From IMG/VR virus record IMGVR_UViG_3300048599_000781, positions 1 to 53,835 of that record: a stretch of DNA of 53,835 nucleotides. One strand, 5' to 3'. The translations under genes were made by a program, and so were the position numbers. The notes under the pieces were generated by a model. The model did not search any database. It saw only the letters and a program-made list of their open reading frames with translations, and was not told where the DNA came from. Source of the DNA: a virus. Lineage: Duplodnaviria > Caudoviricetes. Shown here one piece after another: positions 2,271 through 48,629 of this stretch; position 1 is the stretch's first letter; each line of letters opens with the position of its first letter.

Positions 2271-2271
2271 G

Positions 2272-2547: not shown

Positions 2548-2830
2548 GGCTGCGGGCCTCCGAAATGGCGCGGAGCCGCGGGGCGTCCGGGGTGAAGTCG
2601 GCCAGCGCGCCTTCGCGGTCGGCGGTCAGGCGGATCGCTTCGTCGCAGGCGGCGACGTAGTCGATGAAGAGCGGGCGGGCGTCATCGCCGTCGTGGGCGC
2701 GATAGGCGCGCCATTTGGCGTTGATGTCCCGGCGCAGGGGGATGGGGAGGCCGTACCAGTGGTCGCGGCAGAGGAAGCCGCTTCCACCTCGGCGCGCCGT
2801 GCAACCCACGGCCTTGCAGGCGGCGCTCAT
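2537..2830 (-). CDS. Small Zn-finger-like phage protein
   Basis: CxxxxC...CxxHW motif (CKAVGC...LCRDHW); ATGA overlap with the upstream gene. Confidence 0.7.
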   Translation of the reverse strand: MSAACKAVGCTARRGGSGFLCRDHWYGLPIPLRRDINAKWRAYRAHDGDDARPLFIDYVAACDEAIRLTADREGALADFTPDAPRLRAISEARSRAR

Positions 2831-3078
2831 AGCCAGGTCTCCAGGATGACGGGGTCGTCGTCGGGCGTCCGCGCGATGCGGACGACGCCGACGCCGAGCC
2901 GCGCGGCCGAGGCGCGGACCTGCTCGCGCAGGGCGTCGAGGTCCGGATCGGCGAGGACGTGCTGCGTGGCGCGCGGCCCTTCCGGACCGCAGAGCCAGAG
3001 GCGGGCGACATAGTTCTGCGGATTGTCCAGCGGGTGGTCGTAGACGGTCCACATCGGCAGGTGGGTCGCGAAGTTCAT
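2827..3078 (-). CDS. Hypothetical phage protein
   Basis: MNFATHLPMWTVYDHPLDNP...DDDPVILETWL; ATGA coupling at both ends. Confidence 0.7.
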   Translation of the reverse strand: MNFATHLPMWTVYDHPLDNPQNYVARLWLCGPEGPRATQHVLADPDLDALREQVRASAARLGVGVVRIARTPDDDPVILETWL

Positions 3079-7792: not shown

Positions 7793-7823
7793 GTATCCCT
7801 GGCGTCACCGAATGGGACGCTTC

Positions 7824-8132
7824 ATGGACACCGAAAACACCATTCCGCGATTGCGCCTGGTCGGGCGCACGCCCTTCGACCGCTGGCTGTGGGACCGCGA
7901 CGTCTCGAACGTCGAGGCGGCCCGTCTCCTCGGCCGCCATCCGATGACTATCGCCCGATGGCGGCTTCCGTTTTCAGATGATCGGCGGCGGACGCCGGAT
8001 CGGAACGCGGTCAGGGACATCATCAGTCTCACTGACGGAGAAATCGGGCGAAGGCATTTCGATCCGCCAGTGGATTTTAGCTGCGCCTACCCCGGCGGCC
8101 GCGTCGCAGTGGCGGGGGGGCGTCGGCAATGA
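7824..8132 (+). CDS. cro: Cro-like HTH protein
   Basis: Divergent from cI; HTH SNVEAARLLGRHPMTIARW followed by R-T-P. Confidence 0.7.
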   Translation: MDTENTIPRLRLVGRTPFDRWLWDRDVSNVEAARLLGRHPMTIARWRLPFSDDRRRTPDRNAVRDIISLTDGEIGRRHFDPPVDFSCAYPGGRVAVAGGRRQ

Positions 8133-8346
8133 CGCCTTCCAAGAATGCGACGTGCTCGGTCGCAAGCGCGAGCGTGTCCCTGCTGATCTTGAGTGCGTCC
8201 TTGAGATTGGCGAAGGCCATTGCGCTCTCGCGATCCATGGCGATGAAGCCTCTCGGGCGCGCCGGTTGTCGCTGTTCTAGAATTTGGACCAGCAACTGGG
8301 CAAGTTCGCGCTCTCTTGCGGTGAGGCCGGGTGTTCCCTCCGACAT
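8077..8346 (-). CDS. Antisense accessory gene, 89-aa helical protein
   Basis: ATG with upstream GGGGGA; plausible amphipathic helices; own upstream gap 8347-8518. Confidence 0.5.
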   Translation of the reverse strand: MSEGTPGLTARERELAQLLVQILEQRQPARPRGFIAMDRESAMAFANLKDALKISRDTLALATEHVAFLEGVIADAPPPLRRGRRGRRS

Positions 8347-9868
8347 CGTTACTTTTCCCCCCAGCGGCTTGACCTGCCGCTACTTGAGCTGCGCCCACAA
8401 TGGGAGCGCGAGTCCCTCAGAAGACTACACGTATGGGGAGTCCAGCAACCTGGCGCCCCCTGCGAGGCGACTCCGAGTCGCGTCTGGCGAGATTGGAGCG
8501 GCGTCGTGGGGCGGGGATCTACTCGCCTTCGCCCGTCACGATCCGGCGGGCCTGGTCGTAGAGGGCCCCGAGCTCTTCCGGCGAAAGGCCGGGCGCGTCC
8601 GCGCCCAGCGCGTAGACCGCGAACTCCCTGATCTCGCGGTCGGTCTCGCGGTCCAGCCGCGCCTCAATGAAGGCGGCGATCTCGGCCGCTGCGAGCTGCT
8701 CGCTCACGTGCAGCAAGCCATCAGCGTCGACCAGCCGGCGTTTGGCCCTTCGGAAGGCGGCGAGACGTTCGGGGCGGCCGGCGATGCGTGTCACGGCCGC
8801 CTCGATGTCCGTCGCGGAGGCGGCCGGTGTAAGGCGGCGCACGTGTGCGGCGACCCGGTCGCGGTCGATCTCGGCCTCGGTCGCCATCATGACCAGGTCG
8901 ATCGCCACCTCGACCTCGTCGGGATCGAGCGCTCCATCTGCGTGGGCGAGGTAAGCCAGTACGCTCAATTCATCCCGGCATTTGCGAATGGCGGCCGCCG
9001 TTGGATCGCCCTGGCGAGCTGGATCGAACAGCGCGTGGGCCTGGAGCCAAGCCAGCGGCTCGTCTGGAACTTCACCAGTCGCCAGGCAGGTAAGTTCGAT
9101 CACCCGGTCGGCGCGGAACGATCGCAGCTCTCCGCGCAGGTGGCAGAACCCGCGGAAATAGACTTTGCCGCCTTCGCGCCAGACCGACTGCAATGTGACG
9201 GCTCGCTCGCTGTCGTCGCCTGCCGCCGTCTCGTAGAGGATGTGAATGACCGTTGGCATGACCGCGCTGCGGTCGATGTCCTCGACGGCTTCGCTGAGCG
9301 GACGAGCCGGGCTCTCGTTGGGTCCCGCCGCAAACAGCGGGTGAGAAAGCAGCCAGGTCTGAGGGTTATGAGCGATCTGGCCAGTGGTCAGGTCGGTCAG
9401 TTGGAGCGTCCCGTCTGCGCGGAACGCGCGCGCTACCCGGCGCAGATGGCATATGCCCCGGAAATAGACCTTCCCGCTCTCGCGCCACACCTTCTCAAGT
9501 GTGATGTCCCGTTCGCTTTGCTCGCCGGCCGTATCGTAGCGGATACGGATGTCAGGCGGCGGCAGGTCCTCAGTGGGCTCGTTGGTCACCAGGCCGTCGG
9601 CGACTTCCTCCGCCAGTTCGGAGAGCGCCAAGGCCGGCGCAGCGCCCATCTCAGGCGGGTCTTCCCCCGCCGGGGCGCGCTGACGGCGGCCCAATCGATC
9701 CAGCAGGCGCGCCACGCCCCGTCTTGCGACGTCGACATAGGCCGACGCCTTCGGCGCCTCGTGCATTGCCGCCATGGGCCGCTCCCCCTTCACCCGATCC
9801 CCGCGCCACGCTCGCATGAGTCCCGAGCCGCGCCACAACCGATGGAGGCCAGCCATGGCTTTCGGTAA
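8129..9868 (+). other. Sense-strand bridge ORF 1 spanning the antisense cassette
   Basis: ATG 8129 overlaps the cro TGA (ATGA); open for 579 codons; stop overlaps the next gene (ATG 9855); no recognisable domain. Confidence 0.5.
8519..9775 (-). CDS. Tandem WYL-domain + TerB-like protein (antisense moron)
   Basis: Two ~75-aa repeats (Y...SER..TL..VWRE.GKVYFRG.CHLR...R.FRAD) followed by TerB-like LAHADGALDPDE...VDADGLLHVSE; RBS GGGGAG before ATG 9775. Confidence 0.8.
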   Translation of the reverse strand: MAAMHEAPKASAYVDVARRGVARLLDRLGRRQRAPAGEDPPEMGAAPALALSELAEEVADGLVTNEPTEDLPPPDIRIRYDTAGEQSERDITLEKVWRESGKVYFRGICHLRRVARAFRADGTLQLTDLTTGQIAHNPQTWLLSHPLFAAGPNESPARPLSEAVEDIDRSAVMPTVIHILYETAAGDDSERAVTLQSVWREGGKVYFRGFCHLRGELRSFRADRVIELTCLATGEVPDEPLAWLQAHALFDPARQGDPTAAAIRKCRDELSVLAYLAHADGALDPDEVEVAIDLVMMATEAEIDRDRVAAHVRRLTPAASATDIEAAVTRIAGRPERLAAFRRAKRRLVDADGLLHVSEQLAAAEIAAFIEARLDRETDREIREFAVYALGADAPGLSPEELGALYDQARRIVTGEGE

Positions 9869-10286
9869 GCCACGCGCGCCAGGCGCGTTCGCCCCGCGCG
9901 CCCCCAAGCCCGCCGCCGCGGTCCGCGCCGAATGGACCGCGGCCATCGCCTATGCCGGCGACATCTGCCTGCACGCCGAACTGGTGGACGGGGGCGCGGA
10001 CGAGGCGACCCTGCGCCAGCCGGGGCAGGCGCTCTCGCGGCTGATGGTGGCGCTGCGCGACCTCGCGCCCGAGAACTTCCCGGTCGGGTCGAGCGCCTGC
10101 CGGACCATGGCCGGGGCGTTCCTGCACCTGGCGCGCTACCTGGTGCTGCCGACGACCGGGCCGATGGCGCGCACGGCGTGCGCCGCCTTCCTGGCGCCGG
10201 GGGTCCGCCAGCTCGACGCGGCCCTGCACCAGCTCCGCGCCGAAGAGGCCTCGGCCTGGCGCGCGCAGACGGGGCGGGACGAATGA
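9855..10286 (+). CDS. Hypothetical early protein
   Basis: GGAGG RBS at 9844; high-GC codon usage; coupled to the next ORF. Confidence 0.65.
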   Translation: MAFGKPRAPGAFAPRAPKPAAAVRAEWTAAIAYAGDICLHAELVDGGADEATLRQPGQALSRLMVALRDLAPENFPVGSSACRTMAGAFLHLARYLVLPTTGPMARTACAAFLAPGVRQLDAALHQLRAEEASAWRAQTGRDE

Positions 10287-10450
10287 GCCCGGCCCTGCGT
10301 CCGCACCGCGACCCGATGCAGCGCGACCGCCGCCAGGCCGCCTACAGCGCCTATCGCGCCCGCTGGGCGGCCGAGTTCGGCCTGTGGATCGCCCAGCCGG
10401 CGGCCGCCCGCACCGAGGACCGGCCCCCGAGCCGGCCGGAGGGGGCATGA
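10283..10450 (+). CDS. Small hypothetical protein
   Basis: ATGA overlaps at both ends. Confidence 0.5.
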   Translation: MSPALRPHRDPMQRDRRQAAYSAYRARWAAEFGLWIAQPAAARTEDRPPSRPEGA

Positions 10451-10914
10451 GCGGCCAGCCCGGATCATCGCCGCGCCGGCGGCTGGACCCCTACCATATC
10501 GCGTTCGCCCGCGCCCGGCGTCCGCGGACGGGCTGGCAGACCCTGGCGCAGATGCTGGGGGTGAACGCCGAGGACCTGCGCCGCGCCTGCGAGGACACCG
10601 CGGTCTATTCCGCGCCCGAGCCTGAAGCGCCGATCTTCGTGCATCCGCCCAAGCCGACGCCGAAGGACCGGCAGCGGCCGCGCAGCGTCCAGGCCGGAAC
10701 CATGGAGGCGGCGGTGCTGGCCGCCCTGGCCGGCGGCGCGCGGCGGCGGGTCCGGCCGCTCGCCTGGGGCGCGGGCCTGACCGAGAAGCAGACGCGCTCG
10801 CTGCTGGTCACCCTGACGACCAAGGGCATGGTCGAGGGGCGCGGCGAGGTCGGCTGGCGGCTGACCGCGGCCGGCAAGGCGGCGCTGGCCGGCTTCGGGG
10901 GCGGCCATGGCTGA
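10447..10914 (+). CDS. HTH/wHTH DNA-binding protein
   Basis: GWQTLAQMLGVNAEDLRR and C-terminal wHTH-like LTTKGMV...WRLTAAG. Confidence 0.65.
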   Translation: MSGQPGSSPRRRLDPYHIAFARARRPRTGWQTLAQMLGVNAEDLRRACEDTAVYSAPEPEAPIFVHPPKPTPKDRQRPRSVQAGTMEAAVLAALAGGARRRVRPLAWGAGLTEKQTRSLLVTLTTKGMVEGRGEVGWRLTAAGKAALAGFGGGHG

Positions 10915-13141
10915 CGGAAGCTGGCCGCTGCATCCGGCAAGGCGGCCGATCCATGCCGGCGCGCCCGGCAAGCTGAAGGTGGTGGGGTTCGCCGGCGGGG
11001 GCGGCTCGTCCGAGGCGGTGCGCGAGGCGCTGGGGGCCGACCCGGACCTGGCCATGAACCACTGGATGGTCGCGGTGCTGGCGCACCAGCGGCATTTCCC
11101 GCGCACCGAACACCGCTGCGCGGACATCTGGCAGGAAGATCCGCGCGCCTGGCGGCCGGGGGAGCCGATTGGCTTCGCCTGGTTCTCGCCCGACTGCACC
11201 GACTTCTCGAAGGCCAAGGGCAAGGCCCCGCGGTCCGAACGCATCCGCGGGCTGGCCTGGTCGATCATCCCCTGGGCCGTGTTCCGGACGATCGACACGA
11301 TCATGATCGAGAACGTCGAGGAGTTCGTGAAGTGGGGGCCGGTCTATCGCAGCGGCCTCAAGGCGGGCGAACCGATCCCGAAGCGACGGGGCGAGACCTT
11401 CCAGCGGTTCGTGCGGCGGCTGAAGCAGGTCGGCTACTGGGTCGAGCATCGCTTCCTGAACGCCGCGGACTATGGCGCGCCGACCACGCGCAAGCGGTTC
11501 TACGCCATCGCGAAACATGTCGGCGTCATCCGGGTGGGCCGGATCGAGGCCGGGCTGGAGGCCTCGCCGATCGTCTGGCCCGAGCCGAGCCACGCGCCGC
11601 GGCATCTGGCCGAGAAGCTGGGCCGCAAGCCCTGGGTCGGGGCCTGCGAGATCATCGACTGGAATGAGCGCTGCCCGTCGATCTTCCTGACGCCGGAGGA
11701 GGCTAAGGCCGAGGGGCTGAAGGTCAAGCGGCCGCTGGTCGGCGCTACGCACAGCCGGATCGCCCGCGGGCTGGAGCGGTTCGTGATCGGCTCGGCCGAG
11801 CCGTTTGTGGTTCCGTTGACCCACCAGGGCGACCTGCGGACGCACGCCGCGCGCGATCCCTTGCGGACGGTGACCGGCGCGCAGCGAGGGGAGCTGGCTG
11901 CGGTCGACGTCGGGATGATCTCCAACGCCTACGGTTCGAACACCCGCGGCGGGCGTGGCGATCCGCGCGATCCTGCCAAGACGTTGACCGGCGCGCATCA
12001 TAGCGGCCTGGTCGTCGGCTCCTTGGTGCGGACTGACATGCACCAGTCGAACGCCAGGTGCGCCTACGATGCTGCGGACCCGCTGCGGACCGTGACCTCG
12101 GCGGGCGGGCACGCCGCAATGTCGGCGACCATAGTGGGCGTGGGCGGGCGGCGCGGGTCCAGTCCGCCGACGAGCGCGGCGCGGCCCTTCCCGACCGTGA
12201 CGGGAAAGGCGGACGCCGCTCTGGCCACGGGCTACCTCGTCCCGCGCTATGGTGAGCGCGATGGCCAGGCGCCTCGCGCCCTGCCGGTGACCGGGCCATA
12301 TCCCGCCGTCGTGCCGGACCAGAACGGCGGCTCGCTGGCCGCCGTCAGCCTGCACCGCCAGTTCGGGCGCAGCATCGGCGGCCCGGCCAACGATCCCGCA
12401 CCGACGCCGATGCCGGGTGGCGGCGGCAAGACCGCGGTCCAGATCGCCTGGCTGGGCCGACAGTTCGGGTCGAATGTCAGCGGCCGCCCGATCGGCGACC
12501 CAGCGCCGACGGTGATGTCCGGAGGGGGCGGCGGCAAGACCCAGCTCGTGGTCGGGTCTCTCGCCTCCTACTACGCGACCGGAGAGGGGTCCGGCCTGGC
12601 CGATCCGATGCGGTCGGCGACCGGGCGGGCGCGGCACGGCCTGACCCTGGCGCATGTGCTCCAGGCCAATACCGGCCTGATCGGGCGGGCGGCGACCGAC
12701 CCGCTGTCGACCATCGTGCAGCTCGGCTCGACCCAGCAACTGATCGAGACGGCCCTGGCCCTCGAGGGCGGGCCGGTCGGCCGCCGCGCGCAGGTGCTGG
12801 AATTCCTGTGGCGCCACTTTGGGCCTCCGACGCCGGACGAATGGCGCGATCCGGCGGCGACGCTGCAGGGCCGGCTGAAGTTCGGCCTGGTGGTCATCGA
12901 CGAGCTGATCTGGATGATCGTCGATATCGGCCTGCGGATGCTCAAGCCGAGCGAGCTGGCGGCGGCCATGGGCCTGCGGCCCGGCTTCGACCTTTCGGTC
13001 AACGCCCTGGGCGAGCCGGTCAGCAAGACCCACCAGATCCAGATGATCGGCAACATGGTCAGTCCGCCGCCGGCCATCGCGATGATCCGGGCCAACTGCC
13101 CGGACCTGATCGAACCCCAGGATTGGAAGGAGGCGGCATGA
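10907..13141 (+). CDS. C5-cytosine DNA methyltransferase with repeat-rich insertion
   Basis: Motif I FAGGGG, catalytic SPDC, motif VI ENV, motif VIII YGAPTTRKR, motif X IGNMV. Confidence 0.9.
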   Translation: MADGSWPLHPARRPIHAGAPGKLKVVGFAGGGGSSEAVREALGADPDLAMNHWMVAVLAHQRHFPRTEHRCADIWQEDPRAWRPGEPIGFAWFSPDCTDFSKAKGKAPRSERIRGLAWSIIPWAVFRTIDTIMIENVEEFVKWGPVYRSGLKAGEPIPKRRGETFQRFVRRLKQVGYWVEHRFLNAADYGAPTTRKRFYAIAKHVGVIRVGRIEAGLEASPIVWPEPSHAPRHLAEKLGRKPWVGACEIIDWNERCPSIFLTPEEAKAEGLKVKRPLVGATHSRIARGLERFVIGSAEPFVVPLTHQGDLRTHAARDPLRTVTGAQRGELAAVDVGMISNAYGSNTRGGRGDPRDPAKTLTGAHHSGLVVGSLVRTDMHQSNARCAYDAADPLRTVTSAGGHAAMSATIVGVGGRRGSSPPTSAARPFPTVTGKADAALATGYLVPRYGERDGQAPRALPVTGPYPAVVPDQNGGSLAAVSLHRQFGRSIGGPANDPAPTPMPGGGGKTAVQIAWLGRQFGSNVSGRPIGDPAPTVMSGGGGGKTQLVVGSLASYYATGEGSGLADPMRSATGRARHGLTLAHVLQANTGLIGRAATDPLSTIVQLGSTQQLIETALALEGGPVGRRAQVLEFLWRHFGPPTPDEWRDPAATLQGRLKFGLVVIDELIWMIVDIGLRMLKPSELAAAMGLRPGFDLSVNALGEPVSKTHQIQMIGNMVSPPPAIAMIRANCPDLIEPQDWKEAA

Positions 13142-13473
13142 AGGACGCCGGGACGCCCGTCGGGCTGACGACGGAGGAGCGCCGCGCGGCCGTGGCCATG
13201 GCCAGGGCGCTGTCGGACATCCGCGAGGCGCGGGTGCGGCAGGTGCGGGAGAAGGGCTACAGCCCCGATCACGACGACCAGTATCGCAGCGATGAGCTGG
13301 AGCGCGCCGCGGCGACCTATGCGCTGGCGCGGACCTATCCGCAGGGGCGGCTGTGGCCCTGGCACCCGAGGTACTGGAAGCCCCGCAGCCATCGCGAGAA
13401 CCTGGTGCGGGCCGGAGCGCTGATCGTGGCGGCGATCGAGAAGATCGACCGGGACGAGGGGCGGGCGAGATGA
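13138..13473 (+). CDS. Conserved-type phage hypothetical protein
   Basis: RxRQ...HDD.Y...EL..AA...WPW...WKP...LVRAGALI pattern common in temperate phages. Confidence 0.75.
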   Translation: MKDAGTPVGLTTEERRAAVAMARALSDIREARVRQVREKGYSPDHDDQYRSDELERAAATYALARTYPQGRLWPWHPRYWKPRSHRENLVRAGALIVAAIEKIDRDEGRAR

Positions 13474-13640
13474 GCGCGGCCCAACACCGGGGGGGGGGTG
13501 AACGCCCCGTCCAGCTTCGCGCCTGGCTGGAATATGTGGCGCAGCAGGCCATCGACTGGCTCGACGAACTCGACGCCGCGACCGAGGACCTGGAGGACGA
13601 CGAGCGCGAGGTCGTCACGGTCGAGGAGGCTTGGCCATGA
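13470..13640 (+). CDS. Small acidic protein containing a G10 tract
   Basis: ATGA coupling at both ends; IDWLDELDAATEDLEDD. Confidence 0.55.
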   Translation: MSAAQHRGGGERPVQLRAWLEYVAQQAIDWLDELDAATEDLEDDEREVVTVEEAWP

Positions 13641-13987
13641 CTGAGGTTCGCGCCAACAAGCGCACCTACGCCATCGGCCTCTACCTGCTGAGCGGCTGGC
13701 TGCCGTGGGGCGTCGACCTGGATCGCCGGCGCGGTCGGCCGGAGGCTGCGACGCCCTCGATCCCCTTGTGCGCTCCGCTGTTTTCCCGCGGTCAGGCGCG
13801 GTGGATCGTATGTTGCGGCCACACCCTGTCGACAGCCGAGGTCGAGCGCTGGAAGGCGGCGGGCCTGATGGTCGACGGCGAGCCGGATGCGCGCGGCCGG
13901 CCCTGCGTGGTGGCCGGCCCAGGCCTGGAGCGGTGGCTGGGGGCGGCGTTCAATGGCCTGCATGCCCGGCGTTGGGGGCGCGCATGA
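13637..13987 (+). CDS. Hypothetical protein
   Basis: GGAGG RBS; ATGA coupling. Confidence 0.55.
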   Translation: MTEVRANKRTYAIGLYLLSGWLPWGVDLDRRRGRPEAATPSIPLCAPLFSRGQARWIVCCGHTLSTAEVERWKAAGLMVDGEPDARGRPCVVAGPGLERWLGAAFNGLHARRWGRA

Positions 13988-14145
13988 GCCTCATCCAGAT
14001 CGTGGGCGCCGTCGTGGCCGGATGTGTCGTGCTCGATCTCGCCAAGCCGCGGGACCGCCGCGCCGCGCGCGGCTACCTCACCGGAGCGGGCGTCGTGACG
14101 CTGTTCTGGCTGCTGGTCGAGCTGGCGAGGCTCGCCCATGCTTAA
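13984..14145 (+). CDS. Small two-TM membrane protein
   Basis: Two hydrophobic segments; ATGA coupling. Confidence 0.55.
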   Translation: MSLIQIVGAVVAGCVVLDLAKPRDRRAARGYLTGAGVVTLFWLLVELARLAHA

Positions 14146-14398
14146 GCGGTCGCTCACCGAGGAGGAATTGACGGTCGCGAAGGTCGGCGGGCCGCCCTGG
14201 GGCTGGATGTGCCTGGAGGTCGTGGACCTAGTCAGCGGCGAGCCGATCGACCGGGTCCTGGAAGTCGACGCCGTCGGCGGGTGGCTGGTCCGCTACGTGC
14301 TCGGCCGAGATGGGCGGATTTTGCTGGTCCATGGGACGCCCGTGCTCGAACGGATCGAGGGGCGGTTCGTGATCCGGCGGAAGTCCGCCCATGCGTAG
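14138..14398 (+). CDS. Hypothetical protein
   Basis: Coupled ORF with beta-rich composition. Confidence 0.6.
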   Translation: MLKRSLTEEELTVAKVGGPPWGWMCLEVVDLVSGEPIDRVLEVDAVGGWLVRYVLGRDGRILLVHGTPVLERIEGRFVIRRKSAHA

Positions 14399-16988
14399 GC
14401 GCGAGGACTACGAGGCCTTCCTCAAGGCCAAGGTTCGGCTGGCCGACCCGTCGGGGTTCGACCTGCCGGAGCGGGCGCTGCATCCCTGGCTGAAGCCGCA
14501 TGCCGGGAAGGCGGTGCGCTGGATGCTGCGGGGCGGCCGGCGGGCGGTGTTCGCCAAGTTCGGCCTGGCCAAGACCTCCATGCAGCTCGAAGCCGGCCGG
14601 CGGACGCTGGAGCACCTGGGCGGCCGGGCGCGGGGCCTGATCGTCGCGCCGCTGGGCGTGCGCCAGGAGTTCATGCGCGACGCCGCCAGCCTGGGCGTGG
14701 CGATCCGGTTCGTGCAGTCGCTGGTCGAGTGCTGGGGGCCGGGCCTTTACCTGACCAACTACGAGAGCGTGGTGGGCGGCAAGGTCGACCCGTCCGGCTT
14801 CCAGTTCGTCAGCCTGGACGAGGCGGCGTGCCTGCGCGGCATGGGCGGGACCAAGACTTTCCGCGAGATGATGCGGCTGCTGGAGGGCGTGGCCTATCGG
14901 TTCGTGGCCACGGCGACGCCATCGCCCAACGATTTCGTCGAGCTGTTGGCCTATGCGGCGATCCTGGGGATCATGGATATCGGCCAGGCCAAGACGCGGT
15001 TCTTCCAGCGCAATTCCGAGCAGGCCGACAAGCTGACCCTGCATCCGCACAAGGAGCGGGAGTTCTGGCTGTGGGTGTCGAGCTGGGCGCTGTTCATCTC
15101 GCGGCCGTCGGATCTCGGCTGTTCGGACGACGGCTACGAGCTGCCGCCCATGCAGGTGCGCTGGCATGAGGTGAAGGTCGATCACCGCGACGCCGCGCCC
15201 GAGAAGGGCGGGCAGGGGGTGCTGTTCCGCGATGCGGCGATCGGGGTGGTGGAGAGCGCGCGGGAGAAGCGCGCCACCCTGGTCGCGCGCGTCGCCAAGC
15301 TGGCGCAGATCGTGGCCGGCGACCCGGCCGCGCACCGCATCCTCTGGCACGACCTGGAGGACGAGCGGACCTTGATCGAGCAGGCCGTGCCGGGCGCGTT
15401 CTCGGTCTACGGCGCCCAGGACGGGGCGGTGAACACCGAGCGGATCATCCAGTTCTCGGACGGGCTGTTCCCGTACCTGGCGGCCAAGCCGGTGATGGCG
15501 GGCGCCGGGTGCAATTTCCAGCGGCATTGCCACAAGGCGGTGTTCGTCGGGGTGGGCTTCAAGTTCCACGACTTCATCCAGGCCATCCACCGCATCCAGC
15601 GGTTCGGCCAGACGCAGCCGGTCGAGATCGACGTGATCTACGCCGAGAGCGAGCGGCGGGTGCGGCGCGACCTGGAGCGCAAGTGGGCTCAACACAATCT
15701 GATGGTGGAGAAGATGGCGGGGATCATCCGCGAGTTCGGGCTGTCGAACCTCGACATGGCCCAGGCGCTGACGCGCTCGCTTGGGGTCGAGCGGGTGGAG
15801 GTGGCGGGCGAGGGGTATTCGATCGTCAACAATGATTGCGTGGCCGAATGCATGGGCATGGCCGACGACAGCGTCGACCTGATCGTCACCTCGATCCCGT
15901 TCTCGACGCAGTACGAGTATTCGCCGCGCTACGAGGACTTCGGCCACACCGACGACAACGGCCACTTCTTCGAGCAGATGGGGTTCCTGGCGCCCGAACT
16001 GCTGCGCATCCTCAAGCCCGGCCGGGACGCCTGCATCCATGTGAAGGACCGGATCGTGCCGGGCGCGCTGACCCGCCTGGGCTTCCAGACGGTCTATCCG
16101 TTCGCCGACGACACCCGCGCGGCCTTCATGCGGGCCGGGTTCGCCTATATCGGCAAGATCACGAACACGACCGACGTCGTGCGTGAGAACAACCAGACCT
16201 ATCGGCTGGGGTGGAGCGAGCAGCTCAAGGACGGGACGCGGCAGGGGACCGGTATCCCGGAGGAAATTCTGATCTTTCGCAAGCCGCCGTCGGACCGCAG
16301 CGACGGCTATGCGGACACGCCGGTCGCCAAGGCGCGGCCGGACTATAGGAACGAAGCCGGCGAGCCGGTCAGCTACGAGACGCCGGGAAAGATTCCTGTG
16401 AGCGGCACCGGCTATTCGCGCGGGCGCTGGCAGCTCGACGCGCACGGCTACTGGAAGTCGAGCGGCGACCGGCTGATGCGGGTCGAGGAATGGGCGAGCT
16501 GGGACCGGCTGGACGAGGTCTATCGGCTCTGGCGGCAGTTCAACCTCAACGAGGTCTACGACTACGAGCAGCACGTCCGGATCGGCGAGGCGCTGGACGT
16601 GATGGGCAAGCTGCCGCCCACCTTCATGCTGCTGCCGCCCCATAGCTGGCATCCCGACGTCTGGACCGACGTGGCGCAGATGCTGTCGATGAACACGTTG
16701 CAGTCGGCGGCCGGGGCGGAAAAGCACATCTGCCCCTTGCCCTTCGACATCGTCGACCGGCTGATCCGCCAGCGCTCCATGCCCGGAGAGCTGGTGTTCG
16801 ATCCGTTCGGCGGCTTGGGGACCGTGCCCTATCGCGCCCTGAAGCTCGGCCGGCGCGGGGCCTGCGTGGAGCTGAACGCCGACTATTTCCTGGCGGCCTG
16901 CAAGTATGTCGAGGCCATGGCGCGGGAAAAGGCCATGCCGACCCTGTTCGACCTGACGGGCGAGCGTCAGTCGGAGGCGGCGGCGTGA
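14391..16988 (+). CDS. SNF2-like helicase fused to amino (N4/N6) DNA methyltransferase
   Basis: Degenerate Walker A FGLAKT, LDEA, TATP, QAIHRIQRFGQ; MTase motif IV TSIPF followed by motif I DPFGGLGT (beta order). Confidence 0.9.
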   Translation: MRRREDYEAFLKAKVRLADPSGFDLPERALHPWLKPHAGKAVRWMLRGGRRAVFAKFGLAKTSMQLEAGRRTLEHLGGRARGLIVAPLGVRQEFMRDAASLGVAIRFVQSLVECWGPGLYLTNYESVVGGKVDPSGFQFVSLDEAACLRGMGGTKTFREMMRLLEGVAYRFVATATPSPNDFVELLAYAAILGIMDIGQAKTRFFQRNSEQADKLTLHPHKEREFWLWVSSWALFISRPSDLGCSDDGYELPPMQVRWHEVKVDHRDAAPEKGGQGVLFRDAAIGVVESAREKRATLVARVAKLAQIVAGDPAAHRILWHDLEDERTLIEQAVPGAFSVYGAQDGAVNTERIIQFSDGLFPYLAAKPVMAGAGCNFQRHCHKAVFVGVGFKFHDFIQAIHRIQRFGQTQPVEIDVIYAESERRVRRDLERKWAQHNLMVEKMAGIIREFGLSNLDMAQALTRSLGVERVEVAGEGYSIVNNDCVAECMGMADDSVDLIVTSIPFSTQYEYSPRYEDFGHTDDNGHFFEQMGFLAPELLRILKPGRDACIHVKDRIVPGALTRLGFQTVYPFADDTRAAFMRAGFAYIGKITNTTDVVRENNQTYRLGWSEQLKDGTRQGTGIPEEILIFRKPPSDRSDGYADTPVAKARPDYRNEAGEPVSYETPGKIPVSGTGYSRGRWQLDAHGYWKSSGDRLMRVEEWASWDRLDEVYRLWRQFNLNEVYDYEQHVRIGEALDVMGKLPPTFMLLPPHSWHPDVWTDVAQMLSMNTLQSAAGAEKHICPLPFDIVDRLIRQRSMPGELVFDPFGGLGTVPYRALKLGRRGACVELNADYFLAACKYVEAMAREKAMPTLFDLTGERQSEAAA

Positions 16989-17563
16989 GGGCGGCTCCTG
17001 TATTTTTCTGGGATGCTGTAGGGCTTGCTGCCTTCAGGGGCGTTGTAGTCCAACAACCACAACGCATGGTCGATCGCGCTAACGATGGCGTTCGCTGCGC
17101 GGATGGCAGGCTTTGCATTGCGAAATCTTACCGCCCAGCGCGCTGTTCTGAGGGCGGCTGTGATCTCTGCTTCAACTCGCCGGGCCACTTCGCGATCGTA
17201 GAGGTCGTCGAGTGCTGTGCGCTGAGCGGCGAGTTCCTTTTGGGCGGCGACAAGGCCTCGGAACTGGAAGTTCAGGGATCTCAAATTTCCCGCCGAGGCC
17301 ACCGTTCGGAGCGAGCCGGCGTAAAATCTCGCGCCTCGGAGTGTGCGTGCGTAGTTTTCCACCTTTCGAAGGCTGGACTTTCGTTCTCTGCGGCGCTGCT
17401 CCAAGATTGGCATTCGGCCGACGACGAACGCCGCGACGATGGCGATTATGCCGCCAACCGCCTGAGCCCAGCCGGCAAGACCAGAGTGGGCCTCGACCCA
17501 GCACAGGATCGCCGGATCGGTGCAGGCGCGAGCGATGTCCGGGGTGAGGGCAGGCTCCACCAT
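16967..17563 (-). CDS. Antisense membrane-anchored moron A
   Basis: TM WAQAVGGIIAIVAAFVVG then basic coiled coil; visibly more AT-rich than its flanks. Confidence 0.7.
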   Translation of the reverse strand: MVEPALTPDIARACTDPAILCWVEAHSGLAGWAQAVGGIIAIVAAFVVGRMPILEQRRRERKSSLRKVENYARTLRGARFYAGSLRTVASAGNLRSLNFQFRGLVAAQKELAAQRTALDDLYDREVARRVEAEITAALRTARWAVRFRNAKPAIRAANAIVSAIDHALWLLDYNAPEGSKPYSIPEKYRSRPHAAASD

Positions 17564-17602
17564 GGCTGCATCCTGACCTGCGCAGAGGAGGGAGATCAAT
17601 GA
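16985..17602 (+). other. Sense-strand bridge ORF 2
   Basis: GTG 16985 overlaps the MTase TGA (GTGA; GGAGG at 16973); TGA 17600-17602 overlaps ATG 17599 (ATGA). Confidence 0.5.
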
Positions 17603-17991
17603 CGATCTCCCTGCGCACGGCGTGCGTCCCGGTCACGCTGCAATCTGTGCATGACCTGCTGGCGGCGGGGCGGTTCGACCTCTCCACCGAAGCGCGGACC
17701 CAGGCCGATATCGACACCCTGTTCGCCGGCAGCTTCGGGCCGGGCGCCTATGCCCGCGAGCATAGGCTGGGGCCCAAGGACCGGCCCGACTTCCTGGTCG
17801 GCGGCGCGATCGTGGTCGAGGTGAAGCATTTCCGCGCCTCGCCGCTGCCGACCCTGCGCCAGCTCGCGCGCTACGCCGCCTATCCGCAGGTCGAGGCGGT
17901 GATCCTGGCGTCGGGGCGGACCGTGGCCGCGCCGCCGGACCTGCGGGGCAAGCCGCTGGTCGTGGTCAGCCTGGGGAGCGCCTGGCTGTGA
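17599..17991 (+). CDS. PD-(D/E)xK-type nuclease
   Basis: RPDFLV...VVEVK...QLARY motifs; strong RBS. Confidence 0.75.
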   Translation: MTISLRTACVPVTLQSVHDLLAAGRFDLSTEARTQADIDTLFAGSFGPGAYAREHRLGPKDRPDFLVGGAIVVEVKHFRASPLPTLRQLARYAAYPQVEAVILASGRTVAAPPDLRGKPLVVVSLGSAWL

Positions 17992-18623
17992 GGTGGTTAG
18001 TCGGGAATACCGAGAAGCATGTGTCGCACAAGGTGGGCATGGTGCCAGTAATCGTCGGCGGCATCCTGCAGCGGTTTCCAGTCGATCTGTTGCGCTTCGA
18101 GACTTTGCTGTTCTTTGAACCGGATCGCGGCGGACAAGAAGCTGCTCATCGCTCCACGAAGAGCTTCGCAGCGGGCGTAGAGCGATACGCTTGGCCAGCG
18201 GATCAAGGGTTCGCCGAGAAGACGGTCGAACGGGGCCGTCACCTTGTGTTCCTCGGCTGTCCGAAGATAGGTGGCGAGGCTGCGGGCGTTTTTCTCGCTC
18301 ACCCTGTAGTAGATCTGGTCGAACGATCCGCAGGCGTACTTCACGCTATGCTCGATCGCGCGCTCGAAATCGAGTCTGGCAGCCTCTCTTTGTTGCTCGG
18401 CGACTTCGAAGGGCGCTCGGGCCGCCTTGATGGCGACCCAGATGGCGACAACCGTTCCGATCCCTTGAACCCAGGTCGCCATAGTCGCGCTGAAGACGCC
18501 GAAAGCCGAGGCGGTGACGGCGATGATGGCGCAGCCGACCATGAGGCCGACGCCGAACAGCAATTGGGTGGTCGTTTCTTTCATGCGGTGAAGCTTCCCA
18601 CAGCCGGGAGGCGCGCGCCATGA
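17988..18623 (+). other. Sense-strand bridge ORF 3
   Basis: GTG 17988 overlaps the nuclease TGA (GTGA); TGA 18621-18623 overlaps ATG 18620 (ATGA). Confidence 0.5.
17997..18584 (-). CDS. Antisense membrane-anchored moron B
   Basis: Two N-terminal TMs, the second WVQGIGTVVAIWVAIKAA, then a helical domain; more AT-rich than its flanks. Confidence 0.75.
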   Translation of the reverse strand: MKETTTQLLFGVGLMVGCAIIAVTASAFGVFSATMATWVQGIGTVVAIWVAIKAARAPFEVAEQQREAARLDFERAIEHSVKYACGSFDQIYYRVSEKNARSLATYLRTAEEHKVTAPFDRLLGEPLIRWPSVSLYARCEALRGAMSSFLSAAIRFKEQQSLEAQQIDWKPLQDAADDYWHHAHLVRHMLLGIPD

Positions 18624-20263
18624 CCCGTACCTATGGCGCGTTGGCGCGGGCGGGCGACGGCTGGGTGATCCGGGACCTGGAGCCGCATGTGGCGATCCGG
18701 TTCAAGGCGTTCTTTCCGCGGGTCCCGAAGGCTTCGGCCGGGCCGTTCAAGCTGCATGGCGACCACGCCACGGCGGCCGACCTGCACTGGTTCATGCAGC
18801 GCTATCCGCTGCGGGCCGAGGACGCGGTGCTGGCCGCCCTGACGCGGGACAAGACCGGGTACGAGGCCGCCCAGGCCGAGGTCGGGCGGATCATGGCGCC
18901 GGACTATGCGCCGCCGGGCTATGCCGGCCTGCAGCCAGGCCAATCGGTGCGGCTGCACCAGGCGCGGACCGTGGAGCTGATGCAGCGGTTCCGCGGCGTG
19001 CTGTGCGGCGACGACATGGGCGAGGGCAAGACCTACACCGGCGGGGCCTGCTGCCTGGTTCCCGGCGCCCTGCCGGCGACCATCGTCTGCCCGCCGAACC
19101 TACGCGGCCAGTGGGTGGACAAGCTGCGGGCGTTCACGACGCTCGACGTCCATGCGGTGATCGGGACCAAGCCCTACAACCTGCCGCCCAGCGACGTGCG
19201 GATCATCGGCTACACCCAGCTCGAAGGCTGGGTCGACCTGTTCGAGATGATGGGCGCCGGCTTCCTCGGCTTCGACGAGATCCACGAGCTGCGCCATGGC
19301 GAGGAGACGGCCAAGGGGCAGGCGGCGGCGCGGTTGGCCAGCCTGGCGCGCTATGTCGTCGGCTTCAGCGGCACGCCGATCTTCAACTACGGCGAGGAAA
19401 TCTGGAACATCATGGCGCTGATCCGCCCGGACCTGCTGGGGCCGCGGGAGGATTTTCAGCGCGAGTGGTGCCGGGGACGCGAGGTGAAGGACCCGGAGGC
19501 GCTCGGCTCCTACCTGCGCGAGCAGCACGCCCTGGTGCGCAAGAAGGGCTCCGGCCCGCCGCCGAACGTGATCGTGGAGACCATCGGCCACGACGTGCAG
19601 GTGCTGGAGAGCGTGGAGCTGCTCGCCCACCGGCTGGCCCACAAGGCGGTCAGCGGGGCGTTCATGGAGCGCGGGCAGGCGGTCCGTGAACTGGACCTGA
19701 TGATGCGGATGCAGACCGGGATCGCCAAGGCGAAGGCGGTGGCGGCGTTCGTCCGCATCCTGGTCGAGGGCGGCGAGCCGGTGATCCTCTTCGGGTGGCA
19801 TCGCGAGGTCTACGAGATCTGGATGGCCGAGCTGAACGACCTCGGCGTGGTCATGTACACCGGTAGCGAGACGCCCACGCAGAAGGACGCGGCCAAGCGG
19901 GCCTTCCTGGAGGGGGGGGCGCAGGTCTTCATCATGTCGCTGCGGTCGGGCGCCGGCGTCGACGGGCTGCAGGCGCGCTGCAAGACCGTGGTGTTCGGCG
20001 AGCTGGACTGGTCGCCGGCCATGCACGGCCAGTGCATCGGGCGTGTGAACCGGGAGGGCCAGGCCTGCTGGCCCGAGCCGGTGACGGCGATCTACCTGGT
20101 CGCCGACGACGGGAGCGATCCGCCCATGCAGGACACGCTCGGGATCAAGGCCAGCCAGGCCCATTCGATCGTCGACCCCGGCATGGGGCCGCAAAGGGTG
20201 GAGCGCGACACACGCCCGATCGAGGCGCTGATCGCACGCTATCTGGAGCGTAGGGCGGCATGA
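18620..20263 (+). CDS. SNF2-family (DEAD/H) helicase
   Basis: DDMGEGKT, DEIH, SGTP, GVDGLQ, QCIGRVNREGQ. Confidence 0.9.
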   Translation: MTRTYGALARAGDGWVIRDLEPHVAIRFKAFFPRVPKASAGPFKLHGDHATAADLHWFMQRYPLRAEDAVLAALTRDKTGYEAAQAEVGRIMAPDYAPPGYAGLQPGQSVRLHQARTVELMQRFRGVLCGDDMGEGKTYTGGACCLVPGALPATIVCPPNLRGQWVDKLRAFTTLDVHAVIGTKPYNLPPSDVRIIGYTQLEGWVDLFEMMGAGFLGFDEIHELRHGEETAKGQAAARLASLARYVVGFSGTPIFNYGEEIWNIMALIRPDLLGPREDFQREWCRGREVKDPEALGSYLREQHALVRKKGSGPPPNVIVETIGHDVQVLESVELLAHRLAHKAVSGAFMERGQAVRELDLMMRMQTGIAKAKAVAAFVRILVEGGEPVILFGWHREVYEIWMAELNDLGVVMYTGSETPTQKDAAKRAFLEGGAQVFIMSLRSGAGVDGLQARCKTVVFGELDWSPAMHGQCIGRVNREGQACWPEPVTAIYLVADDGSDPPMQDTLGIKASQAHSIVDPGMGPQRVERDTRPIEALIARYLERRAA

Positions 20264-45723: not shown

Positions 45724-47981
45724 TGATGGCTGGCGCCAAGTTCAAGTTGGATCTCAAGAAGCGCCGAGGCGGCAGCGGCGCCGGGCCGGGAACGCCCGTC
45801 GCATCGCCAATGCCAGGGCCGCTATTTGCCGGCGCGTTCGGTCAAGGCTTCGCGAGCGGCATCCCTGCGGAGACGGTACGTGTCGAGGGCCAAGCATGCT
45901 GCGGCTTGTGGTCCCTCGACCCGGACTTCGAAACCATCTTCCAGCACCGCGAGATGATGTTCTGGGCGCGCGCCAAGGGGGGCATAGACCGGATCGAGCT
46001 GGTTCTGGAGGGCGGCGAAGCGGTCGTGGTTCGTGATCGAGTGACGCGGACCTGGACTGACGTGCTGGGGAATACGCGGACCGACAAGGTCTATGTGGTC
46101 CCGTTCGACCCAGCTCCGATCCTGGCGCTAGGGTTCGCCAACGTCGCGATGGCGTTGTCGGTCACGGCTTTCGCGAAGAACTCAGCGATCACGTCTCGGA
46201 CGCTCTATCGTCGGACCGTCTACGTCAGCGCGCAGGAGTACGCGCGGACGGTCAGTTGCGCTCTCACGCCAGGGTTTCCCGGCGCCGACTACATCGGCCT
46301 TGGCGCCGCGATGAACTTCATTTCACAAGCCGGCAACCGCGGAAGCCGTTCGCGTATCCTGCTCATTGAAGACGGCGAATACGCCTACGGCCCGATCGCG
46401 TCGATCTGGGATGATCCGGGTGAGTGGCCGACGATCCAGGTGGCGCAGGGTGTGAACGCCGTCATCGGCGGCGGACTTGTCGGCGGTGTCCCTTCGCGCT
46501 CGAACCTTGGGGCGACCTGGTTCAAGGGCAACATCGGTACGCCTCTGGTCATTGATCGCAGCCGGCTCGGCTACACCGGCGGCACGCCATTCACCCTTCG
46601 CCAGCAGTCGGAAGGCCGACTTGCCTTTGAGGGCTGCCGGTTCATCGCCTCGGAGTTGGGCGGGCCTGATGTGGGCGGCGTGCCGCAGGTCGGGTCGGGT
46701 GTGGGCAAGTATGCCTTGATCAACGGTCGCCAGACGACGCCGCAATGGATTTTCACGGACGCTTCGGCCGCCGACAACCACAAGCGCAACACCTACTTCA
46801 TGGAGTGCGACGGCGACCCCGTGAACGGACTGCCGGCTGGCGCGATCAGCCGCTACAGCCTGGCGCGCTACTGCGACATGCCGGACGTCTCCGGCTCGGC
46901 CTACGAGTGTTCACAGCGCCATGCGATGACGTGGCGCTGCCGCAGTCGAGGCGCCGGCGGCTATACCTCTGGACTGCGCCTCAAGAACCCCGCTTTCACC
47001 GTGACCTATACTGGAACGGGGGCGGCGCAGTTCGCGGTGGCGGGCGCCAATGGTGGGGTGACGTCAATCAGCTTGATCGTCGACGGCGTGGCGTCGACCT
47101 ATACGGTCTACCACTCTGCGGCCAACCGCAGTTGGAGCGTCTCGGCGTTCGTCGCCTGGGCGAACACCCAGCCGGGCTGGCAGTTGATCGAGCCGGAGAC
47201 GCCGTGCCGCCTGTCTATCGAGTTCCTGTCGCGCCCGGAGTTGGTGCCGGCCAGCCCCTTCGGGACGGTGAACATGACACGGAACGTGCCTGTTGAATGC
47301 ATCAGCCGGATGGACATCCACGCCGTTTCGCTTCCGATGTCATGGTCGGGAGTGGGCGGCCAGGGCGCGGGCGTGGAGAATGTTTGCGTCTTCGGCTTTG
47401 ACGGCAAAATGATCGGAGCTGCGCCGATCGCCTGCGGCGACGGCCACCGCCGCGACGTCTTCATTGAGAACTCGTCCTGGGTTGACTGTGGCCTGGGGTG
47501 GGTCGATCCGCTCACCGGCCTAGCCGATCCGATCCAGCCTCAAAGCGGCTACCTGAAGGCCATCCAGGATGAACATGTCGTCCAGCGGGCGGTGTCATTC
47601 GTCAACTCCGACTGGAACGCCGGTTCGGGCTACTCGAGCCTGGGCCATAACGTCGTTGATCGCGTCATCGGGTTGAACATCAGCCCGCAGGGGGCGGCTC
47701 TAACAGCTCCGGGCGTGGGCCGGACGCATGCGAACTGCGTCTCGTTCAAACAAACGGACGGCTGGTTTGCGACGCTCGGGGCGGTCAACTCGAAGGGCTA
47801 TGGCTCGGGCGTGACCGGCGTCAGCACGATCACCGTCGAGGATGTGTTCGACGATCCGTACGGCGACGACGCCCGGCCGAAGGCGCAAAGCTCAACGGCC
47901 GGAGCGAGGTTGCCTGATGGGACCTACAGCGGAAGGTATCGGCCCGACGGCTCGGAGTTGTTCGAAGAGTATTTCGCGTAA
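45723..47981 (+). CDS. Large fibre/depolymerase-like protein (possible beta-helix)
   Basis: TGATG coupling; ILLIEDGEY motif typical of pectin-lyase-fold starts; Gly/Ser/Asn-rich. Confidence 0.6.
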   Translation: MMAGAKFKLDLKKRRGGSGAGPGTPVASPMPGPLFAGAFGQGFASGIPAETVRVEGQACCGLWSLDPDFETIFQHREMMFWARAKGGIDRIELVLEGGEAVVVRDRVTRTWTDVLGNTRTDKVYVVPFDPAPILALGFANVAMALSVTAFAKNSAITSRTLYRRTVYVSAQEYARTVSCALTPGFPGADYIGLGAAMNFISQAGNRGSRSRILLIEDGEYAYGPIASIWDDPGEWPTIQVAQGVNAVIGGGLVGGVPSRSNLGATWFKGNIGTPLVIDRSRLGYTGGTPFTLRQQSEGRLAFEGCRFIASELGGPDVGGVPQVGSGVGKYALINGRQTTPQWIFTDASAADNHKRNTYFMECDGDPVNGLPAGAISRYSLARYCDMPDVSGSAYECSQRHAMTWRCRSRGAGGYTSGLRLKNPAFTVTYTGTGAAQFAVAGANGGVTSISLIVDGVASTYTVYHSAANRSWSVSAFVAWANTQPGWQLIEPETPCRLSIEFLSRPELVPASPFGTVNMTRNVPVECISRMDIHAVSLPMSWSGVGGQGAGVENVCVFGFDGKMIGAAPIACGDGHRRDVFIENSSWVDCGLGWVDPLTGLADPIQPQSGYLKAIQDEHVVQRAVSFVNSDWNAGSGYSSLGHNVVDRVIGLNISPQGAALTAPGVGRTHANCVSFKQTDGWFATLGAVNSKGYGSGVTGVSTITVEDVFDDPYGDDARPKAQSSTAGARLPDGTYSGRYRPDGSELFEEYFA

Positions 47982-48505
47982 CGGCGGCGCAGGGTGCTCC
48001 CCGCCAGCCCGAAACCGATGATCATCATCGCCCAGGTCGCGGGTTCAGGAACGGGCGCGGGAGCGGGGCCGGGGCTAAGTCCGTCGATCGTGATGCAGCC
48101 GCGGCATCTAATCCAGTTTGGGCCATCGGAGATGGATACGTTGCGCAGAGACTCAATGTTTCCGTCGCCGATCGGACCGCCAAAGAACGAGAGCCAGAAG
48201 TAGCTGGGCTGATCGTCGGCGTTGAAGTGGGCACCGGAATACTCGTTGAGGTCGGCCAGGGTCCAGGACTTGGTTCCCGTGACCATGGTGAAGGCTACGA
48301 ACGGGTTCGCCGCCTCGCTATCGAGAGTCAGCGAGCCTGTGAAGCTCGGCTGGTCAGTCATTCCGAACGGGCTCTGCGTTCCCGCCGCCTGATCCCACAA
48401 GCCCCCGGTGACAGTGAAATTGACGATGGTCGTGAGGGCGAGCGCTGGGGAACCTGTCCCCATCATCAAGGCGGCGACGGCCACCGTGGCCAGATGTTTG
48501 ATCAT
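47924..48505 (-). CDS. Prophage-borne PEPxxWA-CTERM surface protein
   Basis: Signal peptide ending PALA; C-terminal VPEPATWAMMIIGFGLAGSTLRRR; TTGACA upstream (48552-48557, minus strand). Confidence 0.9.
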   Translation of the reverse strand: MIKHLATVAVAALMMGTGSPALALTTIVNFTVTGGLWDQAAGTQSPFGMTDQPSFTGSLTLDSEAANPFVAFTMVTGTKSWTLADLNEYSGAHFNADDQPSYFWLSFFGGPIGDGNIESLRNVSISDGPNWIRCRGCITIDGLSPGPAPAPVPEPATWAMMIIGFGLAGSTLRRRYAKYSSNNSEPSGRYLPL

Positions 48506-48629
48506 CGTTAACCCTCCGAGCTGAGGGCAGGTGAGTCCTGCAAGTTGCAGTTGTCAAGCGCTCGCCCGCGCGCGGCGAGCGGCGCTCGCTGCGCGCATTC
48601 GACATTTCTTTGAGAAAAGGGGACTTCAA

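Follow-up and report, generated by a model that had tools for sequence, protein, structure and literature searches.

We analysed a window of 53,835 nucleotides (nt), the whole of the provirus record IMGVR_UViG_3300048599_000781 (53.8 kb, ~70% guanine plus cytosine, GC), in which a rightward early operon, opening with a gene in the position of cro, is interrupted by three cassettes of minus-strand genes, here called cargo. Each cassette is crossed by one plus-strand open reading frame (ORF), which we call a bridge, and we consider it probable, at roughly 60%, that the three bridges are selected relay frames, translated although their product is irrelevant. A ribosome finishing the upstream operon gene would re-initiate on an overlapping NTGA with the aid of a Shine-Dalgarno (SD) motif, translate across the backward-facing cargo gene in exact codon register, stop on the ATGA of the next operon gene and hand over to that gene. 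The polypeptide itself would be functionless; the selected trait would be unbroken translation of the operon's messenger RNA (mRNA) over the insert, which would keep the genes coupled and leave no long untranslated stretch.

The first-pass annotation of this DNA had described three such ORFs, coupled to their neighbours at both ends and encoding products without recognizable domains, and all of this held up. The ORF list and a base-by-base reading of the junctions returned the three frames at exactly the same coordinates (Table 1), five of their six ends overlap the neighbouring gene by 4 nt and the sixth by 14 nt, and the three products match nothing in Pfam, PHROGs or PADLOC. A run of G lies 8 nt before the ATG of bridge 1, GGAGG lies 7 nt before the GTG of bridge 2 and GGGGAG 9 nt before the GTG of bridge 3. 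Each bridge and the main minus-strand gene below it share one exact codon register, with the GC of codon positions 1 and 3 swapped. That main gene encodes a WYL-domain protein in cassette 1 and the membrane proteins m2 and m3 in cassettes 2 and 3, the latter two being, by profile comparison, apparently distant paralogues of the uncharacterised phrog_33632 membrane-protein family. Cassette 1 is indeed an antisense cassette crossed by its bridge, as had been claimed, with the correction that it probably comprises two minus-strand ORFs, of which only the WYL gene shares the register: the bridge crosses an ORF of 89 amino acids (aa) out of register, then a 172-nt spacer and then the WYL gene in register. 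Of the six frames of the 386-nt interval that separates the cro-position gene from the WYL gene, all but the bridge frame contain a stop. The junction of the cro-position gene and bridge 1 can fold into a strong hairpin with the ATGA in its loop (-44.1 kcal/mol, z -3.1, 2 of 200 shuffles as stable). At the exit of bridge 2, an inverted repeat pairs the SD region of the 17599 gene with that gene's first codons, again with the ATGA in the loop, and evidence for this fold is weak (-33.6 kcal/mol over an 81-nt segment, z -1.75; 13 of 200 shuffles were as stable). A repeat search of the window found nothing bounding the cassettes.

An antisense frame in register with a gene stays open unless the gene uses one of three sense codons, TTA, CTA or TCA. 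Since only these three need be avoided and all have synonyms, such a frame is cheap to open, and the cost to the cargo would be small. The three main cargo genes contain none of these codons, though 10-21% of their four-fold sites end in A. Calibrated on 38 other genes of the window, 5.4-7.1 such codons would be expected and the joint probability of finding none is ~0.001-0.005; for m3 taken alone it is ~0.3-0.4. We regard this within-window result as suggestive and not decisive, because the window was picked from many. It had also been claimed that the minus-strand PEP-CTERM gene of the late region has no bridge. This stood in so far as there is no coupled start, the plus frame over that gene having in-frame starts only at 48227 and 48494 and none near the tail-fibre stop, but the antisense frame itself is stop-free there too (47918-48511).

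The comparative set consisted of 138 loci with homologues of the m2/m3 family (L015-L152), obtained by profile-guided scans of viral and metagenome contigs, and a gene was counted when it was a complete ORF of 120-400 aa on the cargo strand (plus in the locus) carrying the family motif. Motif matches numbered one in 126 loci, two in eight and none in four. About 11 matches, either incomplete or not within these lengths, were discarded; with the window's two copies added, 133 genes were left, and merging of genes with more than half of their 5-mers in common gave 105 non-redundant ones. The same loci supplied 161 control ORFs of 150-350 aa outside the family, in which the ratio of observed to naively expected stops was 0.52. 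Thirty-six of the 105 family genes had no in-register antisense stop at all, against a naive expectation of 2.7-10.7 stops at a third-position GC content (GC3) of 0.42-0.75, and a Poisson model scaled to the controls predicted 2.5 such genes. Many of the stop-free genes have a GC3 of only 0.42-0.6. Where the naive expectation was six or more, zero stops were seen in 31 of 91 family genes and in 0 of 21 controls, and controls with an expectation of 4-6 had none in 2 of 37. Stop counts were bimodal (none in 36 genes, one in 5, two in 11 and three to 17 in 53, this last class being about as expected), and the opening was confined to one frame: the in-register antisense frame was stop-free in 36 genes, the remaining two antisense frames in 1 and 0, and neither of the shifted sense frames (+1 and +2) in any. 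Stop-free frames thus occur far more often than codon usage predicts for chance shadow ORFs. A further candidate, avoidance of these codons for the sake of the cargo's own translation, was rejected: the genes do use other codons ending in A, their stop counts are bimodal and control genes of the same loci lack the avoidance.

End-coupling in the relatives was scored when a bridge end overlapped the stop or start of a neighbouring ORF of at least 60 aa. If any in-frame start is allowed, 29 of the 36 spanning ORFs begin on the upstream stop (NTGA), 28 end on the downstream start and 23 do both; if only the first start codon is allowed, the counts are 21, 28 and 16. Among 58 stop-free shadow ORFs over non-family genes of the same loci, five starts and four stops were coupled, and in no case both. 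Real non-family genes (252) have such overlaps at 71 of their starts and 80 of their stops, rates exceeded by those of the bridges; coupling is thus tighter in the bridges than in ordinary genes, and the great frequency with which a bridge stops on the next start points to ribosomes being handed over to that gene. An SD-like motif, sought 5-16 nt before the bridge start, was present in 19 of 21 cases, and one preceded the downstream ATG in 24 of 28, against a background of 0.14 in random 12-mers. An independent ORF listing recovered four minus-strand ORFs chained by 4-nt overlaps in L129, two of them over two family genes, and one such coupled bridge in L018. In L018 and L020, whose cargo is 45% identical and whose flanking proteins are 27% identical, the frames are both stop-free and ATGA-coupled at both ends. 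The first-pass annotation had proposed asking whether cargo in related prophages keeps a coupled open frame more often than controls do, and by our controls it does (36 against 2.5 predicted; 23 of 36 against 0 of 58). The comparative excess, which persists at low GC3, supports the core of its view: selection keeps these frames open and joined at both ends, and they are more than the shadow ORFs of GC-rich DNA.

Pure chance, in which GC-rich shadow ORFs merely happen to touch their neighbours, is accordingly the least probable explanation that we weighed, and one already disfavoured for bridges 2 and 3. It draws on the ~70% GC of the window, where long in-register antisense ORFs lie over many genes, on the unremarkable probability for m3 alone and on bridge 1, which is known from a single locus; it has to contend with the joint within-window probability, with the same architecture over homologues of GC3 0.42-0.6 and with the complete lack of both-end coupling in the control shadow ORFs.

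Several bridges differ from the plain arrangement. Long spanning frames of 350-730 codons were observed in L099 (reverse strand, 843-3041), L146, L130, L074 and L056. Some bridges extend 300-1500 nt past the family gene or run in frame into the next operon gene, so a bridge can be an extension of its neighbour. We also observed a string of ~25 nt with a GGAAUC-YUAGC-like end just before the exit ATGA in L018, L020 (both copies), L021 and L103, and similar exit-junction strings in L073, L077, L116 and L106. The string recurs before differing downstream genes, and it could be a portable restart signal, or else a promoter or leader of the cargo read on the other strand.

Such a common pre-ATGA string, present in several cassettes and even at two slots of one phage, fits an explanation by which the junction overlaps are leftovers of insertion, for instance of recombination at existing ATGA junctions, and the open frame is a by-product without a role. 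The same explanation gains from the SNF2 gene, whose start overlaps the stop of an upstream plus-strand gene in relatives too, so that the ATGA at 18620 would be ancestral, and from the 'GTG' before the stop at 17988, which derives from a conserved terminal Leu codon. A scar, however, cannot erase the 3-11 stops expected in a 200-codon frame, and in that frame alone, nor can it account for an SD motif preceding 19 of 21 bridge starts; we hold this origin to be improbable.

If the spanning ORFs were true antisense overlapping genes with functional products, their frames would likewise be open, preceded by SD motifs and coupled as genes are, and there is a precedent in Pseudomonas phage Fc02, where a lytic-operon gene after ner overlaps a lysogen-expressed gene on the opposite strand and both are active (PMC9936078). 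The comparisons speak against it. Bridged pairs have a cargo identity of at most 48%, at which the in-register antisense identity is 21-31%, and at matched sense identity the antisense identity of bridged pairs (0.156, 0.167 and 0.226) is close to that of unbridged pairs (0.152, 0.168 and 0.200); substitutions follow the cargo frame, with position 3 of the cargo codons differing most in the bridged and unbridged classes alike. No sign of the purifying selection expected of a functional antisense overlapping gene was found, in a comparison whose power is limited by bridged pairs being less than 50% identical. To this are added the lack of any family match for the three window products, the varying length and extent of the bridges, some of which continue in frame into the neighbouring gene, and the gain and loss of the bridged state over the family tree. 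On that tree, which is poorly resolved, bridging requires 28 changes, against 30.3 +/- 2.0 in shuffled data (57 of 300 shuffles required as few), and well-supported branches force at least seven of them; bridging is thus scattered over the family and appears to track context and not descent. We thus find functional overlapping genes an unlikely explanation. Comparison of the loci shows recoding, end-coupling, initiation motifs, recurrence in unrelated phages and a product that is, as judged from these alignments, unconstrained.

The same comparative evidence, of a frame that is selected and a product that is not, is equally expected if translation of the bridge matters for another reason, such as blocking pairing and cleavage of operon and cargo mRNA or shutting off the cargo during lytic growth. 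The bridges, however, stop on the downstream start in 28 of 36 cases, compared with 80 of 252 ordinary genes, which argues for hand-over rather than mere coverage; we rate this alternative as low as that of functional overlapping genes.

Several observations weigh against selected relay frames, or limit how far they can be taken. Bridging is not universal, as 53 of the 105 family genes carry at least three antisense stops, and genes opposite in strand to both neighbours (by a crude flank call) comprise 14 of these unbridged genes and 15 bridged ones. Many unbridged genes thus share the orientation, and a bridge is therefore not needed for an insert to survive. No feature separating bridged from unbridged genes was found in the flank call or the downstream gap, the median gap to the downstream gene being 23 nt in bridged and 80 nt in unbridged genes with wide overlap. 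Flank and control gene calls were made with a GC-periodicity heuristic, not a gene finder, and RNA structure at the junctions of relatives is barely above that of shuffles (z -0.4 to -0.6). The bridge protein appears no more conserved than in unbridged relatives, by a test of limited power. Support for bridge 1 comes from this single locus, and its 3' end is the 14-nt overlap, not an ATGA.

We next consider the cargo itself. Recognizable domains had been ascribed to the antisense products in general, which is correct for the WYL product and not for m2 and m3, neither of which has a Pfam domain. The WYL product matches Pfam PF13280 (9.1e-12, 45.3 bits against a gathering cut-off of 21.8) and, in two stretches, the PADLOC WYL model (1.4e-17), and the start placed at 9775 agrees with the public 418-aa call, which has 13 homologues at 48-66% identity. 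The 89-aa ORF downstream of it has coding-like GC periodicity (0.68, 0.44 and 0.73 at positions 1, 2 and 3 over 8133-8330) and a G-rich ribosome-binding site, and searches of Pfam and PHROG gave no match, leaving it without confirmation by homology. A leftward transcript over the WYL gene and the 89-aa ORF would be antisense to the cro-position gene and head towards the repressor, as in Fc02.

The membrane protein m2 has a homologue, P0003, at 42% identity over 125 aa (E 7.4e-15), and aligns to the m3-family profile with hhalign (96.1%, E 3.2e-09) only over the N-terminal 69 columns; alone, m2 has no PHROG match. In m3, a transmembrane helix is followed by a long helix with a conserved W-x-Q-[AG]-x-G-[ST] motif and a four-helix bundle. 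A full HMMER scan of 1.84 billion representatives returned 53 collinear relatives of ~190-200 aa at E<=1e-3, and an AlphaFold2 model built with the relatives' alignment reached a predicted local distance difference test score (pLDDT) of 91.9. Foldseek with this model gave no Protein Data Bank hit at E<=0.001, the top rows being generic four-helix bundles, and only unnamed clusters in the Atlas. The phrog_33632 profile is matched by m3 itself only at E 0.002 and by seven of nine tested family members, the best at 4.9e-10. Two family copies per phage were also seen elsewhere, adjacent and chained in L129, in separate slots in L018, L020 and L103, and in L074.

From the WYL match, the m2 homologue, the relatives and fold of m3 and the peak of differences at position 3, we conclude that the main minus-strand genes of all three cassettes are real ones, whose own frame is subject to ordinary purifying selection. 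We rejected the converse for cassettes 2 and 3, in which the plus-strand ORFs are the real genes and the minus-strand ones their shadows: the minus-strand products have homologues, and 69 of the 105 antisense frames are closed. The cargo has the deviating composition of morons, with a GC3 of 0.71-0.80 against ~0.9 in the backbone, and is flanked by only 5-40 nt. A crude consensus scan found neither a sigma-70-like site for the minus-strand genes nor a terminator between cargo and neighbours, its totals being one promoter-like site where 1.1 would be expected and eight terminator-like sites where 5.4 would be.

The slots that hold the cassettes could be followed in relatives, where they carry other genes or nothing, as expected of moron sites. 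In L004, the nearest relative found (SNF2 protein 64% identical), the methylase is directly followed by the homologue of the 17599 gene without minus-strand cargo, and two small plus-strand genes lead to the SNF2 gene, joined by a 4-nt overlap; most of the other relatives likewise have a plus-strand gene before SNF2 whose stop overlaps with the SNF2 start, usually by 4 nt. As the slots are coupled but free of cargo in relatives, cassettes 2 and 3 are, by this comparison, insertions into an ancestrally coupled gene chain, with an ancestral ATGA at 18620. No close DNA relatives of m2 or m3 were found in viral, genome or metagenome contigs, queried with single proteins or the pair alignment, and in a blastn search of 16500-18900 against phage records the match was confined to the methylase part. 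The WYL cassette had no relatives in viral contigs with either a single protein or an alignment as query. One candidate relative, L014, was disregarded, its match covering 32 residues at E 4e-4.

The surroundings of the cassettes are those of a temperate phage early region (Table 1). On the minus strand, the left arm encodes a serine recombinase, a ParB_N/helix-turn-helix (HTH) protein and a repressor with HTH and S24-like parts. The rightward operon contains a C5 methylase, an N6/N4 methylase, a phrog_5928 gene, a SNF2 helicase and a DnaA_N/HTH protein, with five 4-nt overlaps in succession from the N6/N4 methylase to the DnaA_N/HTH gene, and is followed by a lambda-type terminase and a portal. 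Neither the cro-position gene nor the product of the 9855 gene has a match in Pfam or PHROG. Homologues of the 17599 gene are 58% identical in L001 and L002, and another adjoins a methylase in L004. At 13142-13630, where no gene had been placed, every third base has a GC content of 0.91, a strong codon periodicity; the stretch probably belongs to a plus-strand gene that begins close to the C5-methylase stop and extends to 13473. In the late region, the tail-fibre-like gene at 45016-47981 (plus strand) has an unusually low GC3 of 0.67 and uses TCA for 33 of its 113 TCN serine codons, and the rest of that region is unlike it.

Table 1. Bridges, cargo genes and neighbouring features of the 53,835-nt window
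Feature	Position	Strand	Basis or remarks
Repressor with HTH and S24-like parts	6908-7741	-	HTH_31 7.7e-07; Peptidase_S24 6e-04, below curated cut-off
Cro-position gene, 106 aa, first in rightward operon, facing the repressor	7812..8132	+	ORF; named by position only
Probable 89-aa gene, downstream of WYL gene	8077..8346	-	Overlaps 3' end of cro-position gene by 56 nt
Hairpin at junction of cro-position gene and bridge 1	8100..8155	+	ATGA in loop; stability in text
Bridge 1, 579 codons	8129..9868	+	ATGA on stop of cro-position gene; TAA 14 nt inside 9855 gene
WYL cargo gene, 418 aa from ATG at 9775	8519..9775	-	Longest ORF reaches 9946
Operon gene 3' of cassette 1, 143 aa	9855..10286	+	GC3 0.93; GGAGG 6 nt before ATG
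N6/N4 DNA methylase (865 aa), immediately preceding bridge 2	14391..16988	+	Pfam N6_N4_Mtase 1.9e-15
Cargo m2, membrane protein, 198 aa	16967..17563	-	Public call agrees; 3' end overlaps methylase 3' end by 22 nt
Bridge 2, 205 codons	16985..17602	+	GTGA on methylase stop; ATGA on 17599 start
Inverted repeat at start of 17599 gene	17579..17618	+	SD region pairs with first codons; ATGA in loop
phrog_5928 gene, 130 aa, between cassettes 2 and 3	17599..17991	+	PHROG 3.8e-21
Bridge 3, 211 codons	17988..18623	+	GTGA on stop of 17599 gene; ATGA on SNF2 start
Cargo m3, phrog_33632-family membrane protein, 195 aa	17997..18584	-	Homologues, alignment, fold
SNF2-family helicase, downstream neighbour of bridge 3	18620..20263	+	Pfam SNF2-rel_dom 1.8e-13, Helicase_C 6.1e-05
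PEP-CTERM gene, late region	47924..48505	-	Pfam PEP-CTERM 8.6e-08; 0 TTA/CTA/TCA against naive 4.2

Taking the bridges as selected relay frames, we infer that the frames are translated, that ribosomes re-initiate at their ends and that selection acts against a loss of coupling or against Rho-dependent polarity. The first-pass annotation went further and proposed slots for cargo that would be expressed in the lysogen and may be silenced by convergent transcription during lytic growth. A translational-coupling review of 2025 describes untranslated stretches of mRNA as the places where Rho loads and links them to polarity (PMC12548453), and escape from such loading would plausibly be a second benefit of the bridge.

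Whether the arrangement is a general and portable cassette design of phages, by which backward-facing and probably lysogen-expressed genes are placed in coupled lytic operons, is a step that we propose tentatively and with somewhat more doubt than belief. Such a cassette might consist of a recoded cargo gene with its own entry (SD motif and NTGA) and its own exit (SD motif and ATGA), so that the insert would perhaps be invisible to the operon. The design may also reach beyond one family, possible further cases being the WYL cassette and a 137-aa cargo in L112, and its units might follow one another in a chain, as they do in L129 and here. A family-blind scan for coupled spanning ORFs returned L112 2870-3337 (reverse strand) over that 137-aa ORF and L132 2540-3499 (plus strand) over a ParB-like gene, but also evident false positives over ordinary genes (L112 6175-6858 and L128 2750-3244), so generality beyond the family is not established by that scan.

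If the bridges are relay frames, they would provide a concrete rule for how a temperate phage can take accessory genes of the opposite strand into essential, translationally coupled operons and yet avoid polar damage, and would constitute a class of long ORFs selected for translation though their product is irrelevant. For annotation, it would follow that relay ORFs are discarded as shadow ORFs, or else that the cargo gene is discarded; for the debate on antisense overlapping genes, that a selected open frame need not mean a functional protein. A route for payload insertion into operons is suggested for phage engineering, and phrog_33632 is marked as a widespread cargo family and a candidate for a function on the lysogen side.

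A classical moron, as in HK97 and HK022, is an accessory gene in an intergenic gap with its own promoter and terminator. The cassettes resemble morons in their foreign composition and in slots that hold other genes or nothing in relatives, and differ from them in that their flanks measure only 5-40 nt, where no terminator fits, and in that the opposite strand is recoded. Leader peptides, and ORF-11 at the integron attI site, are cases in which translation, and not the product, drives expression of what follows. They are like the bridges in that product-independent translation delivers ribosomes or keeps the mRNA covered; they are, however, short and lie in non-coding leaders, whereas the bridges run for 200-700 codons over functional genes of the opposite strand. 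With ATGA translational coupling in operons the bridges have in common the 4-nt stop/start overlaps, the upstream SD motif and the chains of junctions, but unlike in ordinary coupling, one link of the chain is here the reverse complement of another gene and its product is unconstrained. The word 'antisense' does not occur in the translational-coupling review (PMC12548453), and a full-text literature search found no description of an ORF relaying translation across antisense cargo, though supplementary files could hold related observations.

The closest layout is that of gene 10 and olg1 of Pseudomonas phage Fc02, the products of both strands of which exclude superinfecting phages (PMC9936078). 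As in cassette 1, an ORF of the lytic operon, after a cro/ner-type gene, there lies fully opposite a leftward, lysogen-expressed transcript directed towards the repressor. The likeness is one of layout: the operon-strand gene of Fc02 is conserved and active in exclusion, whereas the frame here has neither a family nor extra conservation. The shadow ORFs and long antisense ORFs of GC-rich genomes, among them the overlapping genes of Pseudomonas aeruginosa (PMC8850804), likewise arise where an in-register antisense frame is open for want of TTA, CTA and TCA, but the excess found here is specific to a family, persists at low GC3 and is coupled at both ends. While coupling itself is known, what appears to be new is thus a translational coupling that would be carried, on the back of another gene, by an ORF indifferent to its own product.

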